Positions 10,521 to 63,127 of a stretch of 64,000 nt of DNA are shown piece by piece. Below the pieces are notes generated by a model. The model ran no database searches. It was not told the DNA's origin and saw only the letters and a list, made by a program, of their open reading frames with translations. The stretch is from Escherichia coli. GTDB lineage: Bacteria; Pseudomonadota; Gammaproteobacteria; Enterobacterales; Enterobacteriaceae. The number at the start of each line of letters is the position of its first letter. The stretch's first letter is position 1. The position numbers and the translations under genes are program-made. Where the stretch lies: assembly GCF_041886205.1 (NCBI RefSeq), contig NZ_CP169029.1, one strand, 5' to 3'.

Positions 10521-11672
10521 TTATTTGTTCTGATAATCTTTCAGGATCTGCCGACCTGCTACGTAAATCATAATTTCGTCTGTACCGCCGCCGATACGTT
10601 CACAACGGACATCACGCCAGAAGCGGGAGACGCGCGCCTCATCGGTATAGCCCAGACCGCCCATGATTTGAATCGCATCATCAATGACTTCCATTGCGGT
10701 ACGTGCACAGTACAGTTTTGCCAGCGCCGCGCTGGTGCGCAGTGATTGATGCTGATCGGCTTGCCATGCCACTTTCAGCACCATGTTGCGCATGTTGTCG
10801 ATCTTAATCGCCATCAGCGCCAGTTTTTCCTGGATCATCTGGTTATGCCCAATGGGTTTACCAAAAGCGATACGCTGGTTGGCATAGCGAGCGGCATCTT
10901 CAAAGGCACACTCGGCAAAGCCGGTGCTGCGCGCGGCGTTGATCAGGCGCTCCATCTCAAAGTTGTACATCACATTGAGGAAACCCATTCCTTCTTCGCC
11001 CACCATGTCGCTCTCTTCAACTTCCACGTTGTCGAGATAGACTTCGCAGGTGCTGAGCATATGCCAGCCGATTTTATGCAGCGGGTTAATCTTAATGCCG
11101 GGCTTACTGGAGTCGACCCACCACAGGGTGAAGGCCTTTTTCGGATCATTCGGTTCAGGATCGCGCGCCAGCACCAGCATATATGGGTACTCTTTCGCAC
11201 CGGTAATAAAGGTTTTCTGTCCGTTGATGTAAACCTTGCCGTTTTTACGCGTGTAAGTGGTGGTGGCACTGTTGTTGTCTGAGCCTGCGCCTGGCTCCGT
11301 CAACGCCAGGGCATAGGCGGGATCACCCGTTTCCAGGGTGCTTTCTGCCGTTTTACGTAGCTGCTCTGCAGAACCGAAACGGCGCATACTGTGAATACAT
11401 TGACCGTTGGTGATCAAAAATGCCGGAGCACCGCATTTTGACACTTCCATCAGCGCCAGCATCTGGGTGACGTAATCCGCAGGGATACCACCAAATTCTT
11501 CCGGCACGCCAAGCATGGAAATACCGTTATCCGCCAGTGCCCGCATAAATTCACGCGGGTATGTCCCGTTTTGATCGCAGGTGCGGAAATACTCTTCCGG
11601 AAAGTTAGTCGTAATCAGTTCGCGAATACTGGCCAGCAGCAGTTCTTGTTCTTCAGTTAAAGAAAAATCCAT
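10521..11672 (-). CDS. ydiO: acyl-CoA dehydrogenase (CaiA-like)
   Basis: ORF 10521..11726; start chosen at MDFSLTEEQELL giving 383 aa; acyl-CoA dehydrogenase family. Confidence 0.88.
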   Translation of the reverse strand: MDFSLTEEQELLLASIRELITTNFPEEYFRTCDQNGTYPREFMRALADNGISMLGVPEEFGGIPADYVTQMLALMEVSKCGAPAFLITNGQCIHSMRRFGSAEQLRKTAESTLETGDPAYALALTEPGAGSDNNSATTTYTRKNGKVYINGQKTFITGAKEYPYMLVLARDPEPNDPKKAFTLWWVDSSKPGIKINPLHKIGWHMLSTCEVYLDNVEVEESDMVGEEGMGFLNVMYNFEMERLINAARSTGFAECAFEDAARYANQRIAFGKPIGHNQMIQEKLALMAIKIDNMRNMVLKVAWQADQHQSLRTSAALAKLYCARTAMEVIDDAIQIMGGLGYTDEARVSRFWRDVRCERIGGGTDEIMIYVAGRQILKDYQNK

Positions 11673-13280
11673 CGTGATACTCCTGTTAATGAGCCGCTTC
11701 AGGCAGGACAAAACCCATCGCCGCATCGATAAATAATCTTTCGTCCATCAGTTTGAGTTCTGGCGAAATCACTGGGGTGAAATCCATTTTGTCGAGAATA
11801 TCTTTTTGTAAATCGACGCCAGGGGCGATTTCGATTAAATGCAGTCCGTCTTCTTTCAGCGTGAATACTGCGCGCTCAGTGATATAACGAACATCCAGCC
11901 CTCGCTCGAGAGCGATTTTTCCGCTAAAAGTAATTTCCGGTAGTTCCCGAATAAATTTATTTACCCGTCCTTCCTGGACGATATTCAATTTGCCGTCGGT
12001 AATTTCTGTTTTTAAACTGCCCGCAGTTAATGTGCCGCAGAAAACGATTTTCTTCGAAGTGGCACTGATATCAATAAATCCACCGGTGCCCATGATTTTA
12101 CCATTGAATTTATGCACGCCGACGTTACCGTGCTGGTCGACTTCAGCAAAACTCAAATAACAAACATCCAGACCGCCACCGTGATAAAAATCAAACTGGG
12201 ACGTCATATCCAGAATGGCGCGGGTATTCACGTTCGCGCCAAAGGCGATCCCCTGTGAAGTAATTCCGCCAATCGGACCTGTTTCTACCGTCAGAATAAA
12301 GTCATCAGCACAACCTTCTTCTCGGGCGACCAGGCCAATGCCGTCAGCAATACCGACGCCGACATTCCCCACCGCGCCTTTACGCATTTCGAATAATGCG
12401 CGCCGCGCAACTAATTTACGTTGGTTTAGGGGCAGGCTAAGTTTGGTACTGTCATCAAGGGTGAAGTCACCAGAAATAAAGCGGTTAACCGGTGCACCGC
12501 CATACAGTTGGGTTTGATCCGGATCGACCACCACAATATCCACCAGATAACCCGGAATACGGACAGATTTAGGATGCAGCGTGGCTTTCTTAACCATTTT
12601 CTGCACCTGCATCATCACAATACCGCCGTTATTGTGCACCGCCTGGGCAATAACCAATGCGTCGAGATACATCACCTCATCTTCAAAAGTGGCGTAGCCT
12701 TCGCTGTCGCAGGTGGTAGCGCGAATGAAGGCGATATCTGGCGCAATCGCTTTGTAATAGAGATATTCTTTGTTATCAAACTCGACCAGTTTAATCAGGT
12801 CTTCTTTAGTGACTTCATTCAGTTTGCCGCCTTGCTGGCGTGGATCGACAAATGTCCCGATGCCAATATCACTAATAATACCAGGCTGGTGGGCTGCGGC
12901 GGCGCGTAAGGTTTGTGTAAGTACACCTTGTGGATAGTTATAAGCAATAATTTTATTTTGTTCTGCGAGATCAGAAATACGCGGCGATTGTCCCCAGTGA
13001 CCGCATAATGCCCATTTCACCAGACCTTCTTGCGCCAGCGGACTAATACCGCGATCGGCGCGATCGCCAAGCCCTGTTGGACTAATAATCGATAAATTAC
13101 GTGGCGTTTGAGTCTGTTTATATTTATCAGCAAGAGCAGTAATTAACGTGGTGGCTTCCAGAATACCGCCGCCAGCGCCTAACACACAAAGTGTTGCTTC
13201 GTCGGGAATATAATTCACCGCTTCCGGTGATGCTGCCAACTTACTGATTTAGTGTATGATGGTGTTTTTGAGGTGCTCCA

Positions 13281-13556
13281 GTGGCTTCTGTTTCTATCAG
13301 CTGTCCCTCCTGTTCAGCTACTGACGGGGTGGTGCGTAACGGCAAAAGCACCGCCGGACATCAGCGCTATCTCTGCTCTCACTGCCGTAAAACATGGCAA
13401 CTGCAGTTCACTTACACCGCTTCTCAACCCGGTACGCACCAGAAAATCATTGATATGGCCATGAATGGCGTTGGATGCCGGGCAACCGCCCGCATTATGG
13501 GCGTTGGCCTCAACACGATTTTCCGCCATTTAAAAAACTCAGGCCGCAGTCGGTAA
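13281..13556 (+). CDS. insA: IS1 InsA (transposition inhibitor / N-terminal part of transposase)
   Basis: 91-aa [25 protein letters not shown]...; A6C frameshift motif (TTAAAAAACTC) near its 3' end. Confidence 0.9.
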
Positions 13557-13978
13557 CCTCGCGCATACAGCCGGGCAGTGACGTCATCGTCTGCGCGGAA
13601 ATGGACGAACAGTGGGGCTATGTCGGGGCTAAATCGCGCCAGCGCTGGCTGTTTTACGCGTATGACAGGCTCCGGAAGACGGTTGTTGCGCACGTATTCG
13701 GTGAACGCACTATGGCGACGCTGGGGCGTCTTATGAGCCTGCTGTCACCCTTTGACGTGGTGATATGGATGACGGATGGCTGGCCGCTGTATGAATCCCG
13801 CCTGAAGGGAAAGCTGCACGTAATCAGCAAGCGATATACGCAGCGAATTGAGCGGCATAACCTGAATCTGAGACAGCACCTGGCACGGCTGGGACGGAAG
13901 TCGCTGTCGTTCTCAAAATCGGTGGAGCTGCATGACAAAGTCATCGGGCATTATCTGAACATAAAACACTATCAATAA
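13475..13978 (+). CDS. insB: IS1 InsB reading frame (expressed as InsAB' transposase by -1 frameshift)
   Basis: 167-aa ORF recognised as IS1 InsB. Confidence 0.88.
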
Positions 13979-14202
13979 GTTGGAGTCATTACCCCGCTTC
14001 CTGTGCCGACAGGACCGGCACTCGTCCATTAATACGAGGTGGTTTTACAGGTTTCATTGTTAATTCCTGATTCAGGTGTGATTTTCCCTACGCCAGATGG
14101 AGAATTAGCGCACAGAGACTCACGAAATATTTTTATTAAATACGGTTAACTATATTTTTTTTAGTTCGGCGGGGGAGGGTATTCCCGCCGAAATATTATT
14201 GC

Positions 14203-35170: not shown

Positions 35171-37920
<2,750 letters not shown>

Positions 37921-42517: not shown

Positions 42518-42903
42518 TGTTACTTACCTGTACGCATTCTTTCGAATTTAGTGTTATCAGATAAGTTTGGTTGAGATTTTTAGAATTTGAGAAATTTCAG
42601 ACAGGGATGAAAAGGGCGCTAACCGCCCTTGATTAAATTCTGTCAGGCGAGTTTTGCCTGATTGATTTGACTCAGTGGCTCATTGACATCGAAAACTTTG
42701 GCGACAACTTCCTCAACGCCGAGATTTTTAAGTCGGGCAGTATGTTTTTCCAGATAGGCAAGGGCGCTTTTTTCATCAGTAAAAAGATAGATCCCACCGG
42801 CTTCGTGGTTCTTTTCACTTTCTGTCCATACCTTCCACAGAAAACCAGGTTCCTGATTAATTGAACCGCCCCGGGTTTCCTGGAGAGTGTTTTATCTGTG
42901 AAC

Positions 42904-43794
42904 TCAGGCTGCCAGATCATCGTTTCCGATGGAAGCATAATAAGCTTTTTCTGCTTCTGCCGGAGGAGTATGGCCCAGCCTTTCCAGCAATCGTCGATTG
43001 TTATACCAGTCCACCCACGTGAGTGTGGCCAGTTCCACTTCTGCACGGTTTTTCCAGCTCTTACGGTGTATTACCTCCGCTTTGTAAAGACCATTGATGC
43101 TCTCCGCCATCGCGTTGTCATACGAGTCGCCTGTACTTCCTGTTGATGCCAGTAATCCGGCTTCCTTAAGCCGCTGTGTGTAGGCCAGCGATACATACTG
43201 AGAACCTTTATCACTGTGATGGACCGTGCCGGACGGTCGACGGGCCCATAACGCCTGCTCCAGTGCATCCAGCACGAATGTCGTTTCCATGGACGATGAG
43301 ACCCGCCACCCCACGATGTATCCGGCAAACACATCAATGATGAACGCCACATAGACGAAGCCCCGCCATGTGCTGACGTAAGTAAAATCAGCCACCCACA
43401 GCTGGTCAGGTCGTTCTGCCACGAACTGACGGTTTACGCGGTCGCCTGCGGCAACGGCTTTCCGGCTGATGGTCGTACGGACCTTTTTACCCCGGAGAAC
43501 ACCGGCAAGTCCCATAACCGCCATGAGACGTGCCACAGTGCATCTGGCCACTCTGATACCTTCCCGTAACAACTGACGCCAGACTTTACGCACACCGTAT
43601 ACCTTGTGATTTTCATCGTATACGCGCTGTATCTCTTTCTTCAGCCAGTCATCGCGCTGCGCACGGGCACTGCGTTTATCCGGATGATGTCGCTGTTGCT
43701 GACAGTGGTAATACGTTGACGGGGCAATATGCAGTTCGCTGCATAGCGGTCCGACCCCGTACTGCTCACGCAGCTTATCCAGCAGTGGCATCAT
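42904..43794 (-). CDS. IS3-family transposase OrfB (DDE integrase core)
   Basis: 296-aa ORF; overlaps orfA 3' end at an A-run consistent with -1 frameshifting. Confidence 0.88.
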
Positions 43795-44117
43795 TTTTTC
43801 CAGAGGCGGTCGAACTCCGCCTTCGCAAAATAAGCGGAAGCCTGGCGAAGGATATCGTTACTGCGGCGCAGTTCACGATTTTCACGTTCCAGCTCTTTCA
43901 GACGCTGACGTTCAGCGGTGGTGAGCCCTCCATCACCGCCCCCGGTATCCCGCTCATGCTGGCGAACCCAGACACGCAGAGTCTCCGGCGTACAGCCAAT
44001 CTTTGGAGCAATGGAACAAATTGTCGCCCATTGTGAGTCATATTCGCTCTGACTTTCCAGAACCATACGGACTGCCCGTTGACGGACTTCGGGGGAAAAA
44101 CGAGTATTTTTAGTCAT
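43791..44117 (-). CDS. IS3-family transposase OrfA (HTH)
   Basis: 108-aa [26 protein letters not shown]... Confidence 0.88.
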
Positions 44118-44368
44118 CCTGTTTACCTCTTTCTCAGGAAGTTTAGTCTCCAGGATTCCCGGGGCGGTTCAAATCGACTCAGCAAGCGGTTTAAGCTGCT
44201 CAGCCATTGCGTCGCCAAATGGGCCATTAAAAGCAAAATGAAGTTGTAACAAAGTTGCCATAGCGATTCTCCTTCTGATAACGCATACGAAGACAGTGTA
44301 AATCTTTTAACGTATTGGATACAGAGAAGAAACAGAGGGAAAAAGGAGAAGACCAGATTAAGAAAATC

Positions 44369-57241: not shown

Positions 57242-60200
57242 CTATCCCCAATCTAGCCCTTGTGGCGAACTTGAAAATCCCGCCTCACGCAGCAACGTAA
57301 ACATCGGCGTTTGCCGGACCGGTAGATCATTCACTTCTGTTAGCGTAAAGCGCAGCCGTGGTTCGCGACGCAGTGCGGTAGTCAGCGCGTGGAAAATCTC
57401 TGGGGCGAGTAATTCCTCTTTTTCCTGCCAGACCAGCATTTTTTTGCCGCCTTGCGCCAGATAGAGTAACAATTTGCCGCCAGAAACGACCACCAGCGCA
57501 CCCGCCCGACGCGTTGGAACCAGCGTTGCCGGATGTGCAGGCCAGGGCAGAAGATTTCCCCACACATTAGCCGGATCGTTGGCGGAGAGCGCCACTGGTG
57601 TATAGTGGCGCGTTTGCGCGGTTTGTGTCGCCAGGTCACGCAATCGATCAATAGTCAGACGTTCAGCGAATTGCGCGCCACCCAGACCTTCTACAAAACG
57701 ACCTCGCATAATTCGCCCGGAGTCTTCCATACTTCGACAAAGCGTTTGCATCGATGGAAACCCGCCAGGGATATTTTCGGCTATCACCGCCTGACGACTG
57801 ATGATGCCGTAGCGGTCGAGCATATTTTCCGCCAGCGCCAGCATCCTTTCGGTATCGTTTAGTGGCTCCACCTGCAATAACGACCAGCGTCCAGCCAGAT
57901 TTGGTGTGTTGTAAGATACCCGCGGCGAGACGGGTTGCGCATAGACAGGACGTCCACGACGAGCCCGGTGACTGCGGCGAGTTGAGGTGCGTGCGTTGGA
58001 ACTGCTGCGGGTGAGGGCGCGTAACGGTGCCCAAATGTCGCTGGTGATGACGCCTTGCCAGACCAGCGCCCATAACGCCTCTTGCAGGGCAGAGAGATCA
58101 ACCGATTCGCCGATTTTGTCGCGTATCCGTTGGCTGATTTGTTGTGCAAACCAGGCTCCTCCGTCAGCCAGAACAGCGACTATCGCTTGTTGCAGCGCCG
58201 AACGATTCGCCTGATCCGCTTCGGCGGGAGTGAACGATTCTGCAGCATATTCCTGTAGATGCAGTGCCACCAGGCCGTCATCTTCACCCAGTTTTTTTTG
58301 CCCCGACCAGATAACCGCACCGGTTGCCAGTAATTCATCGAGCATTTCTGACGAATAGTCGCGTACGCGGGCAGGCAGGATCTGGCTTTCCCAGAGTGAG
58401 GCGGGTAAACCGACTCCGGCAAGCTGTTCGATCACCCGCATCACGCCATCTACGCCCTCATAAACGCCTGGCGATGTTGAGGCAAAGAGCGCCGGGCTAC
58501 CATCGGTGGCGGGTAATACGCCCTGACGTTCCAGCAGCAATCGCGCATAGGTCGTGGCTGCAACGGGACGCGTCGCTTCTCTGGCAGCTTGCAGCGAGCG
58601 CAAACGCAGACGACGAAATACTTCATCGCTCACCCAGATGTCTTGTTGCAGATTCATCACCAGACCCTGTTCACGCAGTTGCTGAAGCTGCTCTTCGACA
58701 ATGGCAATACCGAGACTAAACTCATGAGCCAGTTGTTCAGCCGTGACCAGAGCATGAGCCCGGAGATAGCGCAGAAAGAGGTCGCGAAGCGGGTAACTGA
58801 CTCTATGTAAATAAATCTCTGGCAATGACTCTGGTAGTCGTACGCCGAGGGCATCACGCAGCCTGGCGGCATCATCCATACAGGCAAGACGCTCCTGTCC
58901 GCTAATCATCGCCGGGAAGATTCGTTTTACTGCAAGAAGATTTTCCAGATACGACGCAACCTCTTCACTGCTGCCTGTATGCCGTTGCGCCAGGTCTTCA
59001 ACGGTCATTGGCCCCAGTTCGCGCAGCAGGTCGAACAATCCTTCTTCACCTTTCGCTCTTCTGCCAGGAGCCAGTCGTTGCAACTCTTCTTCCACCTGGC
59101 GAATGACCTGCGGGTCGAGTAATTCCCCCGGATCGACCTGTCCGAGTAGATTGCGCAGTAACTCGCTGTCCAGCGACAGTACGGATGCCCGGCGCTCTGC
59201 CAGCGGGGCGTCGCTCTGGTACATAAATTCCGCGACATAGCCGAACAATAAACTGGTGGCGAAAGGCGAGGGCGTAGTAGTCGTTACATCGGATATTTGA
59301 ATTTCGCCACCGTTCAGGCGAAGCATCAAACGTTCCAGTGCGGGAAGATCATAAACATCTTGCAGACATTCGCGTAGGGTTTCGAGAATGACCGGAAAAT
59401 CCGGATATCCCTGAGCGATTTCCAGCAACTGACTGGCGCGCAGCCGTTGTTGCCAAAGCGGGGTGCGATGGCCCGGCGTGCGGCCCGGCATTAATAATGC
59501 CCGCGCGGCGCATTCGCGAAAACGGGCGGCGAAAAGTGCCGAACTGCCTACCGCCTCGCGGACAATTTGCAGCAACTTTTCTGGTTCAAACAAAAAAATC
59601 GCGGCATCGGGCAATTTACCATCGGTGTCAGGAATACGTGCAACAATGCCGTCATCACTGGCGACCACCGACGCGTCAGCGCCCCATAGGGCATGTATTC
59701 GCCCGGCAATCGCCAGCGCCCAGGGTTCATGCACCCGTCTTCCATAGGGAGAGTGCAAAATAATACGCCAGTCACCAATTTCATCACGGCACCGTTCGAG
59801 GACCAGATGGCGACTCCCCGGAACGATGCCCGTCGCGTTGCGCTGCTCCTCAATCAACCCCTGAATATTGGCGATCGTATTTTCTTCTGCCAGCCACGGG
59901 GGAATAGTCCCGGAAAAGAACGCGCCATCCGCCAGCAAATGAAGAAAATCGCCGATCATCTCGCCTAATTCAGCCGGACGTCCGTTACCTTCACCACGCC
60001 AGAAGGGGAGCCGGGCAGAACGACCCGGAGCAGGAGTCACAATCACCTGATCGCGGGTGATTTGCTGGATCCGCCATGAGGTAGCGCCGAGAGTGATAAT
60101 GTCGTTCACCCGCGACTCATATACCATCTCCTCATCCAGTTCACCCACCCGCCGCGAACCGGCCTTTTCTTCACCTTCGGGTAATAACACGCTATACATG

Positions 60201-61567
60201 CCACGATCCGGAATGGTGCCGCCGCTGGTAACCGCCAACAATTGAGCGCCAGGTCGGGCGGTCAATATCCCGGTCTCCCTGTTCCAGACCAGTTTGGGGC
60301 GAAAAGCAGAAAAATCGCCAGAGGGATAGCGCCCGGAAAGCATATCCAGCGTGGCGTCAAAAACACGTCTTGGCAGATCTTTCCACGGTGCGGCACGGCG
60401 TACGCGGGAGTACCATTCGTCTACCTGTAATGCATCCATCGCCGCGGCGGCAACGGTTTGCTGCGCAAGGACGTCGAGAGGATTATGCGGTGGTGTCAGG
60501 TTTTCCAGCCTGCCTGCGAACATACACTCTACAATGACTGTGGAATCGACTAAATCACGCCGGGTACGGGGGAAAAACAGCCCTTTAGATACACCGCCAA
60601 CCTGATGTCCGGCGCGACCAATGCGTTGTAACCCACTGGCAACAGAAAGCGGCGTTGCCACCTGAATCACCAGATCCACCGCGCCCATATCAATCCCCAG
60701 TTCAAGACTGGAGGTTGCGACCACGCAGCGTAATTCACCCGATTTCAGCGCCTGTTCGGTGATTGCTCGTTGTTCTTTAGAGACGGAGCCGTGGTGTGAG
60801 CGGGCAATAAAAACGTCGCTACTTTGTACACGGTTAGAGGTTGCGCCGGAGGTCGACTCGAAATGGGCCGCATCAACGGCGATAGACGGGGAACGCTGTA
60901 AGCGTGCGGCGTAAAGCTCATTTAATCGTGCCGTCAGTTTTTCCGCCAGCCCCCGCGAATTAGTAAAGACAATGGTCGAGCGATGGCGCAACACTTCATC
61001 AAGGATGCCCGTTTCAATATATGGCCAGATGGAGCCTTCCCGGCCGGCATGGCTGTCTTCGCCAGTGCCGCTGGCGACCGATGAGACATCATCCATATTG
61101 GCGACCGGTACGACAATCCGTATCTGCGGATGACGCATTGCGGGCGGGTTGACTACCGTAACCGGGCGATCGCCACCAAGAAATGCTGCCACATCGCTGG
61201 CTGAGCGCACAGTGGCAGAAAGGCCAATTCGCTGTGCTGAGGTGTGGAGCAGCGCATCGAGCCGCTCCAGACTTAACGCCAGATGCGCACCACGTTTACT
61301 GCCCGCTACCGCGTGGACTTCATCAATAATTACCGTTTCGACGCCGCGTAGCGTTTCGCGCGCGCGGGAGGTCAGCATCAGATAGAGTGATTCGGGTGTG
61401 GTGATCAGAATATCCGGCGGATTACGGGTGAGTTTGCTGCGTTCCTGTGCAGGCGTATCGCCAGTACGGATCCCTACGCGAAGATTGACTTCCGTTTCGC
61501 CGCGCCGCTGAAAAGCGGCGCACGAAAAACGCGAAAGCGTTTCACGATAAATGCGAAAACAACTGTT
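57242..61567 (-). pseudogene. lhr: ATP-dependent helicase Lhr, 5'-truncated (lacks N-terminal region with helicase motif I)
   Basis: Track ORF 57242..61378 (1378 aa) begins just before motif II (IIDEVHAV); frame stays open upstream to a stop at ~61568 with no ATG/GTG/TTG; Lhr in K-12 is about 1538 aa; yniB starts at 61690. Confidence 0.8.
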
Positions 61568-61689
61568 TCACGGAAAGGCATAATGGTTAAACACCCGGTT
61601 CTGGCGCATATAACTGAACGAAGTACACGACAAAAAAATATGTCACAGGTAAACTAAGTGAAACGACGCGTCTTAATCAAGGAGAACTC

Positions 61690-62226
61690 ATGACGTATCA
61701 ACAAGCTGGACGCATTGCTGTTTTGAAAAGGATTTTGGGTTGGGTGATTTTTATACCTGCATTGATCTCTACATTGATTTCTTTGCTGAAATTTATGAAT
61801 ACCCGACAGGAAAACCAGGAAGGCATTAATGCGGTCATGCTCGACTTTACTCATGTCATGATCGATATGATGCAGGCGAATACGCCTTTTTTGAATCTGT
61901 TCTGGTATAACTCCCCGACGCCCAATTTTAATGGTGGCGTGAACGTTATGTTCTGGGTGATTTTCATCCTGATTTTTGTCGGACTGGCGTTCCAGGATTC
62001 CGGTGCCCGGATGAGTCGCCAGGCGCGCTTCTTGCGGGAAGGTGTTGAAGATCAACTCATTCTGGAAAAAGCCAAAGGGGAAGAGGGGCTAACGCGTGAA
62101 CAAATTGAGTCCCGTATTGTTGTTCCGCACCATACTATTTTCCTGCAGTTTTTCTCACTGTATATCCTGCCGGTTATTTGTATTGCTGCAGGTTATGTGT
62201 TCTTTTCTCTGCTTGGGTTTATTTAA
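61690..62226 (+). CDS. yniB: inner-membrane protein YniB
   Basis: 178-aa ORF with RBS AAGGAG; MTYQQAGRIAVLKRILGWVIF... Confidence 0.85.
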   Translation: MTYQQAGRIAVLKRILGWVIFIPALISTLISLLKFMNTRQENQEGINAVMLDFTHVMIDMMQANTPFLNLFWYNSPTPNFNGGVNVMFWVIFILIFVGLAFQDSGARMSRQARFLREGVEDQLILEKAKGEEGLTREQIESRIVVPHHTIFLQFFSLYILPVICIAAGYVFFSLLGFI

Positions 62227-62266: not shown

Positions 62267-63127
62267 TCATGCTGCTAATAATCTATCCAGTGACTGCTGA
62301 GCAATAACCAAATGCTGACCGCCAAATAACCTTGCACGATTTAACAGCGTGTAGAGTTGGTAAACCGGTTGACGTTCAAGGAAATCGGCAGGTAGCGGGG
62401 ATACTGACTGATAGCCGTCATAGATTTGTGGCGGCTGTTCAGTATGCAGCGGTAACATCGCCAGGTCGCACTCTCGGTCACCCCAGTAGCAGGCCGGGTC
62501 GAAAATGTACGGGCCATCCGGACCCAGCGCACAGTTGCCGGACCATAAATCGCCGTGCAACAGAGAAGGCTGCGGTTGATGCGAGGCCAGACGCTGCTGA
62601 ATATGCTCGACGATGGCGTCGATATTGCCGAAAGCGATCCCTTTCTCTGCTGCCAGTTCCAACTGCCAGCCAATCCGTTGTTCAGCAAAAAACGTTGACC
62701 AGCGACGTTGCCAGGTGTTGGGCTGTGGAGTTGTGGAGAGCGAGTTATCAAAATCGAGGCCAAATTGTGGTTGGTCACTCCATTGATGTAAACGCGCAAT
62801 TTGCTGACCAAGAATAAATGCGCTATGCGCTTCCAGCGGACGAGGTGGGAGATAATCCATCACCAGAAAACTGTAGTCACGGTCAGCGCCTACTGCCCAA
62901 ACCTTAGGCACGGTGACGGTTTTACTACGCGACAGTAACTCCAGTTGGTCGGCTTCGGCGGTAAAACCGGGAAGCAGTTCCCTTTCATCACATTTGACGA
63001 AAAAGTCATGTCCTGCATAGCGCAAATGCCATGCGGCATGGACTTCTCCGCCAGGCAGTTCATTACGCAGTTCGATTTCGCCTTCGCCTAACTGCTCGCT
63101 CAAAAGACGACTGATTGCCTGCCACAT
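62267..63127 (-). CDS. yniA: fructosamine/ketosamine kinase-family protein
   Basis: 286-aa ORF recognised as YniA. Confidence 0.88.
   Translation of the reverse strand: MWQAISRLLSEQLGEGEIELRNELPGGEVHAAWHLRYAGHDFFVKCDERELLPGFTAEADQLELLSRSKTVTVPKVWAVGADRDYSFLVMDYLPPRPLEAHSAFILGQQIARLHQWSDQPQFGLDFDNSLSTTPQPNTWQRRWSTFFAEQRIGWQLELAAEKGIAFGNIDAIVEHIQQRLASHQPQPSLLHGDLWSGNCALGPDGPYIFDPACYWGDRECDLAMLPLHTEQPPQIYDGYQSVSPLPADFLERQPVYQLYTLLNRARLFGGQHLVIAQQSLDRLLAA

Follow-up and report, generated by a model that had tools for sequence, protein, structure and literature searches.

The insertion sequence (IS) element IS1 is classically polar in both orientations, and polar IS1 insertions in the gal and lac operons were reportedly described in 1972 by Fiandt, Szybalski and Malamy and by Hirsch and Starlinger. 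In such mutations IS1 interrupts the leading gene of a pair, and it is expected to put that gene out of action and to lower expression of the one behind it, whichever way the element is oriented. The same arrangement is found in the stretch of Escherichia coli DNA analysed here, a window of 64,000 nucleotides (nt) from contig NZ_CP169029.1 (assembly GCF_041886205.1), in which IS1 interrupts the CoA-transferase gene ydiF, ahead of the acyl-CoA dehydrogenase gene ydiO, and the same outcome would be expected for the ydiF-ydiO pair. Unlike gal and lac, this unit is poorly expressed and poorly characterised, and its polarity is one that we infer. IS1 ends can also create promoters when the flanking DNA offers a suitably spaced -10 hexamer, according to two papers that cite Prentki et al. 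1986 (PMC8764528, PMC9330008). We consider it very likely that the locus results from a recent transposition of an IS1B-type element into ydiF, with inactivation of that gene, accompanied by polarity, as its main effect.

The element occupies positions 13226-13993 of the window on the plus strand and is a complete IS1 of 768 base pairs (bp). Its canonical ends are in place, with GGTGATGCTGCCAACTTACTGAT beginning at 13226 and ATCAATAAGTTGGAGTCATTACC finishing at 13993, and a repeat finder recovered the left (IRL, 13226-13248, plus strand) and right (IRR, 13971-13993, plus strand) terminal inverted repeats as 23-nt arms with 78% complementarity; each repeat was found once in the window and had no match in 100 shuffles. 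Between them lie insA (13281-13556, plus strand, 91 amino acids, GTG start) and the insB frame (13475-13978, plus strand, 167 amino acids), both intact and open, together with the A6C programmed -1 frameshift motif TTAAAAAACTC at 13532-13538 (plus strand, IS1 position 305), which is contained in TTAAAAAAC. The two products share the NCBIfam IS1 transposase model NF033558 between them: InsA matches its N-terminal part (positions 1-81) and also the IS1 zinc-binding domain NF050000, while InsB matches its C-terminal part (positions 76-199; 143.8 bits for the InsB part, against a cutoff of 100). The IRL carries the -35 of the insA promoter, for which a consensus scan gave a promoter-like site at 13233-13260 (plus strand, CTGCCA-16-TATGAT), and on its opposite strand it holds an outward -35 hexamer, TTGGCA.

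At the nucleotide level the element is 99.9% identical (767/768 nt) to the widespread IS1B-type copies, such as the one in EC958, with which it shares the 768 bp, the 23-bp repeats, the A6C frameshift and a duplication of 8 or 9 bp. It differs from the EC958 copy by a single private and synonymous substitution (G>A at 13873, AGG>AGA in insB), and its InsA and InsB proteins are identical to those of the IS1B-type copy; its insertion site is new. The comparison with IS1A of K-12 gave six differing positions (99.2% identity). All the features by which the IS1 family can be recognised in a sequence are present, namely the length, the ends, the insA/insB frameshift, the target duplication and the identity to iso-IS1 forms, and the element is a known iso-form of the common IS1B type, and an active-looking one.

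The insertion is bordered by two perfect copies of an 8-bp target-site duplication, CCGCTTCC, the left one at 13218-13225 (ydiF nt 57-64) and the right one at 13994-14001. The usual range for IS1 is 8 or 9 bp, and 8 bp is thus normal (PMC12428005); a 9-bp duplication with shifted element boundaries was ruled out, since the bases adjoining the two copies differ. When IS1 and one duplicate were removed in silico, a ydiF of 1596 nt was restored with no mismatch to that of E. coli LHM10-1, and the restored protein is the same as LHM10-1 YdiF. Relative to K-12 the restored gene differs by 16 nt and 3 amino acids, and the alignment to K-12 ydiF that the initial annotation had proposed confirmed both the uninterrupted allele and the duplication, as the target sequence CAGGAAGCGGTGAATTAT is identical. 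That annotation, made from the sequence alone, had described a complete IS1 with terminal repeats, insA, insB and the A6C motif, flanked by an 8-bp direct repeat and splitting ydiF, all of which we recovered; its placement of the break after about codon 23 has to be corrected, as IS1 was inserted after ydiF nt 64, within codon 22.

On the minus strand, the 5′ stub of ydiF (13989-14057, with the ATG at 14057) consists of 21 native codons and a glycine codon, and is then closed by TAA TGA from the IRR (translation MKPVKPPRINGRVPVLSAQEAG, followed by two stops). The remaining ydiF body (11686-13225, minus strand; nt 57-1596 including the stop codon) is severed from its start codon. Because the native frame ends after 22 residues at the two IRR stop codons, full-length YdiF is impossible from this allele, whose reading frame is broken after nt 64, and the earlier suggestion that the strain probably lacks native YdiF holds, with the caveat of a possible duplication marked by a junction at 61508/61509 that is discussed below. 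YdiF is a family I acyl-CoA:acetate/lactate CoA-transferase of the fused alpha/beta type; the restored protein aligns over its full length (residues 1-531) with PDB 2AHU (solved structures 2AHU, 2AHV and 2AHW), and since the Pfam CoA_trans domain (PF01144, residues 16-252) begins at residue 16, the break falls just inside that domain. The catalytic motifs EXGXXG (E333) and GXGGF (398) are retained in the severed body.

Over 28.7 kb, only 17 substitutions separate the flanks of the element from LHM10-1, IS1 being the only indel, and the five complete genomes nearest to the window carry no insertion at this site. Among 5,426 complete E. coli genomes, the junction queries gave no single-piece match, and the 29-nt junction had no exact match in the GTDB representative genomes or the JGI metagenomes. 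Comparison with other isolates, which had been recommended at the outset, therefore places the allele outside the complete-genome collection altogether. The junction was found elsewhere only through an exact-protein look-up in the Logan short-read assemblies, where three contigs are recorded as encoding a 510-amino-acid product that begins at the Val22 GTG. The contig retrieved, from SRR28800585, opens with 29 nt of the IRL and passes into ydiF at exactly the base seen in the window; it is identical to the window over 4569/4569 nt, including two single-nucleotide polymorphisms that separate the window from LHM10-1. Given the absence of the junction from the genomes and its base-for-base presence in SRR28800585, the insertion is real and recent, the private synonymous change of the element also counting towards its recency, and is limited to a small lineage or to one strain that was sequenced more than once. 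The host belongs to an E. coli lineage of commensal or livestock type. Among the complete genomes this particular allele is new, but its kind is already known.

In regard to the mechanism, the InsAB′ transposase would be produced by the -1 frameshift at A6C and would attach both 23-bp ends of the element to a target cut with an 8-bp stagger, after which gap repair would duplicate CCGCTTCC and leave the simple insertion allele ydiF::IS1. The element now sits between any upstream promoter and both the ydiF body and ydiO, which agrees with the separation from the native promoter that had been noted initially. Transcripts coming from upstream would shed their ribosomes at the IRR stops and then face about 770 nt of untranslated antisense IS1 RNA, and because this stretch must be crossed they would probably be terminated. 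The ydiO gene (10521-11672, minus strand) is intact, encodes 383 amino acids (PRK12341, 786 bits against a cutoff of 537) and starts 13 nt past the ydiF stop behind a strong Shine-Dalgarno sequence of its own (-6.9 kcal/mol). Since ydiF and ydiO have been described as a single operon (bioRxiv 10.1101/2020.04.27.065417), ydiO expression is expected to be lower, and polarity should depress both the ydiF body and ydiO, which is transcribed together with it. Any residual expression would come from read-through or from a weak promoter-like site at the IRL junction.

YdiF moves CoA from one short-chain acid to another; it makes acetyl-CoA and lactyl-CoA in vitro, and deletion of ydiF lowers lysine D-lactylation (PMC9636275, PMC13090971). 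The expected phenotype of the insertion is a lower short-chain acyl- and lactyl-CoA transfer, with a possible impairment of the anaerobic acyl-CoA pathway, and it is expected to be mild and dependent on growth conditions because the Keio ydiF mutants are viable (bioRxiv 10.1101/2020.04.27.065417; PMC9636275, PMC13090971).

Several points weigh against a simple inactivation with polarity. The promoter-like site at the junction leaves room for some truncated protein, which could also be made from the in-frame GTG of V22 with its Shine-Dalgarno pairing of -3.5 kcal/mol, and both catalytic motifs are kept in the ydiF body. The junction at 61508/61509 could mean that the segment is duplicated and that a second copy of ydiF exists. 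Also, the polarity and the loss of activity are effects that we infer, the polarity of IS1 being a matter of classical knowledge.

An unlikely but coherent alternative is that the insertion activates rather than silences, the -35 of the IRL and a -10 in ydiF forming a working promoter that would free the ydiF body and ydiO of their native control and yield an N-terminally truncated active YdiF, raised YdiO, or both. The insertion does create such a promoter-like site at 13210-13239 (minus strand), where TTGGCA from the IRL is followed by an 18-nt spacer and by AATTAT from ydiF, for 9/12 matches, and this arrangement agrees with the Prentki-type spacing (16-18 nt, with the -35 in the IS1 end and the -10 in the flank). 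The promoters described for afaA in ST131 (PMC8764528) and for acrEF and bla-TEM (PMC9330008) have their outward -35 at 8 nt from the tip of the element and their -10 at 17-18 nt, as is the case here. However, in those instances the element lies upstream of an intact gene and the activity was measured, whereas here it lies inside the gene, the -10 has only 4/6 matches and the promoter is putative. The strong Shine-Dalgarno sequence of ydiO, the retention of E333 and GXGGF, and the prediction by gene callers of the 510-amino-acid product starting at V22 would also suit an activated operon. On the other hand, promoter-like sites are not more frequent in the region than in shuffles (2 against 2.3 expected), and the RNA would start near 13203, downstream of the V22 GTG (13218). 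The next in-frame starts are V33 (Shine-Dalgarno -0.2 kcal/mol) and V88, both of which lose part of the CoA_trans domain, and about 1.5 kb of poorly translated RNA ahead of ydiO would probably favour Rho-dependent termination. If active, the junction promoter would mainly serve ydiO, or V33 and V88 products without part of the domain, and altogether these sequence features argue only weakly for its activity.

The initial annotation had also proposed that a truncated YdiF could be made from a TTG start within the left end of IS1. The open reading frame in question (11686-13239) does exist, with its TTG at 13239-13237 inside the IRL, but we rejected the TTG as a likely start: its Shine-Dalgarno pairing is practically nil (-0.2 kcal/mol, where the native ATG has -4.3 and the V22 GTG -3.5), and the corresponding 517-amino-acid product is not on record in public gene calls. 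This TTG is the first half of the outward -35 hexamer, 8 nt from the tip of IS1, and a transcript from the junction promoter cannot contain it because that transcript would begin further downstream. As a separate observation, a consensus scan of the IS1-ydiF junction on the minus strand (13215-13230) gave a small hairpin, TCACCGGAAGCGGTGA, behind which the ydiF strand is U-rich.

Less probable still is that the strain carries an intact ydiF elsewhere, on the other copy of a roughly 80-kb segment (yniB to lhr) that would be tandemly duplicated or present on a circle. The idea comes from the distal part of the window, where lhr (57242-61508, minus strand) breaks off about 350 nt from its start and gives way at 61508/61509 to about 138 nt of foreign DNA (61509-61646), after which come the normal upstream region of yniB, yniB itself (61690-62226, plus strand) and yniA (62267-63127, minus strand). 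Within the foreign DNA, positions 61513-61560 match the extreme right end of phages Mu and SfMu with 100% identity, and the next 85 nt or so (61561-61646) had no match in E. coli genomes, phage records, IMG/VR, the GTDB representatives or the JGI metagenomes. Because yniB lies about 20 kb before the start of the window in reference genomes, and in the same orientation, the window reads from the end of the segment into its beginning, a topology that fits a tandem-duplication or circle joint, with ydiF inside the segment. The joint between lhr and yniB is absent from the 5,426 complete genomes. However, it was not confirmed in independent data: the truncated Lhr product that would reveal it is not on record, and the full-length Lhr allele, being common in the records, is uninformative for this strain. 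Moreover, the SRR28800585 contig shows no branch on its way from ydiF into the end of IS1, where, judging by how de Bruijn contigs end, an intact allele would be expected to cause a branch, and a duplication later than the insertion would have placed IS1 in both copies.

Finally, an assembly artefact, in which an IS1 copy from elsewhere was misplaced into ydiF, can be practically dismissed, for although IS1 is multi-copy (a median of 11 places per genome) and repeats classically cause misassembly, the target duplication is perfect, excision restores the exact gene, the junction recurs in an independent public read-set assembly, and the truncated product is carried by three contigs.

The transposition of IS1 into ydiF, which we favour, is one of many such events. 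In order to count them, 120-nt queries combining one IS1 end with a 60-nt anchor were run against the complete genomes, and a genome was counted when that IS1 end and the anchor lay on one strand, no more than about 560 nt apart. With the anchor at the 5′ end of ydiF, 24 genomes were found for the IS1 orientation of the window and 16 for the opposite one; mid-gene anchors gave, in the orientation of the window, one genome for ydiO, eight genuine ones for ydiN and three for fadK. The exact junction positions were obtained from 15 fetched loci and the others were deduced from match spans. In the same orientation as the window they fall at ydiF nt 82, 135, 154, 172, 177, 272, 358, 507, 534 and 563, with one at -42 upstream, and in the opposite orientation at nt 63, 135, 154, 179, 310, 352, 358, 373 and 538. 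At least 20 independent IS1 insertions thus lie in the first 560 nt or so of ydiF or 42 nt upstream, a region that corresponds to about 12660-14100 of the window, in at least 40 of the 5,426 genomes, and four of the nine opposite-orientation events are at most 1 nt from a same-orientation site (chance P of about 0.001). In strain 2EC1, the IS1 junction is 1 nt from that of the window, in the opposite orientation. The targets are G+C-rich 8-9-mers beside A+T-rich stretches, which fits the IS1 target preference that Zerbib et al. are said to have described in 1985.

A view of ydiF as unremarkable was dropped; it had been based on a count of 27 genomes carrying IS1 close by, where the genome-wide density predicts about 25. 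This comparison is misleading because its baseline is inflated by clonally inherited copies, and the like-for-like anchors (1, 8 and 3 against 24), together with the reuse of sites, speak against it, even though three control loci (ydiO, ydiN and fadK) do not suffice to fix the rate. The allele studied here is therefore a single instance among many within a regional hot spot, and E. coli tolerates losing the cluster.

The other ydiF::IS1 alleles (among them those of 2EC1, SC516, AVS0456/WEM25, EC06/ET76, HS30-1, PI12 and AR_0114) involve the same gene and the same element, with duplications of 8 or 9 bp, but at other positions or in other orientations. Several of them have lost ydiF-ydiO-ydiP or the DNA as far as fadK; in total, IS1-adjacent deletions were seen in six alleles, where the missing DNA extends from ydiF to ydiP/ydiQ or as far as fadK. 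Unlike these, the allele of the window is still a simple insertion. A further case of IS damage to the ydiF-ydiO operon was observed in E. coli GDSC2239PM (locus L001, 757-2973 and 4626-5393), where IS1 lies 42 nt upstream of an intact ydiF and a separate IS5 lies inside ydiO. That YdiF is being lost convergently through IS1 by selection, beyond target preference, in IS1-rich gut and livestock lineages is a possibility in which we place little confidence.

The surroundings of the insertion are syntenic with the ydi region of E. coli, in the minus-strand order ydiM, ydiN, ydiB, aroD, ydiF, ydiO, with ydiP on the plus strand and then ydiQRST-fadK, and the rest of the ydi cluster, ydiO included, has no indels relative to LHM10-1. 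A consensus scan also gave a strong terminator-like hairpin at 14165-14192 (plus strand), between ydiF and aroD, which would halt transcripts reading out of IS1 towards aroD. Elsewhere in the window, ydhY (35171-35797) is an intact open reading frame of 208 amino acids, whereas the otherwise near-identical LHM10-1 is annotated as frameshifted there, the difference being the single gap in that LHM10-1 alignment block. Also, a 1310-bp element of the IS3 family, of IS629-like size and with ends TGAACCGCCCCGGG..., interrupts ydhR at 42862-44171; its 296-amino-acid OrfB matches NF033516, it is flanked by a 3-bp duplication (AAT), and its site is empty in LHM10-1.

Through the insertion the strain loses a single enzyme, which is not essential, and ydiO expression is probably reduced as well. 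In the annotation, ydiF should be marked as a pseudogene, which would also be useful for metabolic models of this strain, given that YdiF has lately been implicated in the supply of lactyl-CoA for lysine lactylation. That IS1 disrupts genes with polar effects, forms promoters at its junctions and has hot spots is textbook knowledge. If there were selection against a promiscuous acyl-/lactyl-CoA transferase, ydiF would be a recurrent adaptive loss-of-function locus, and the pattern as it stands, with repeated hits at reused sites and frequent later deletion of the whole anaerobic acyl-CoA cluster, is of modest interest for the study of how IS elements choose their targets and how E. coli loses genes.

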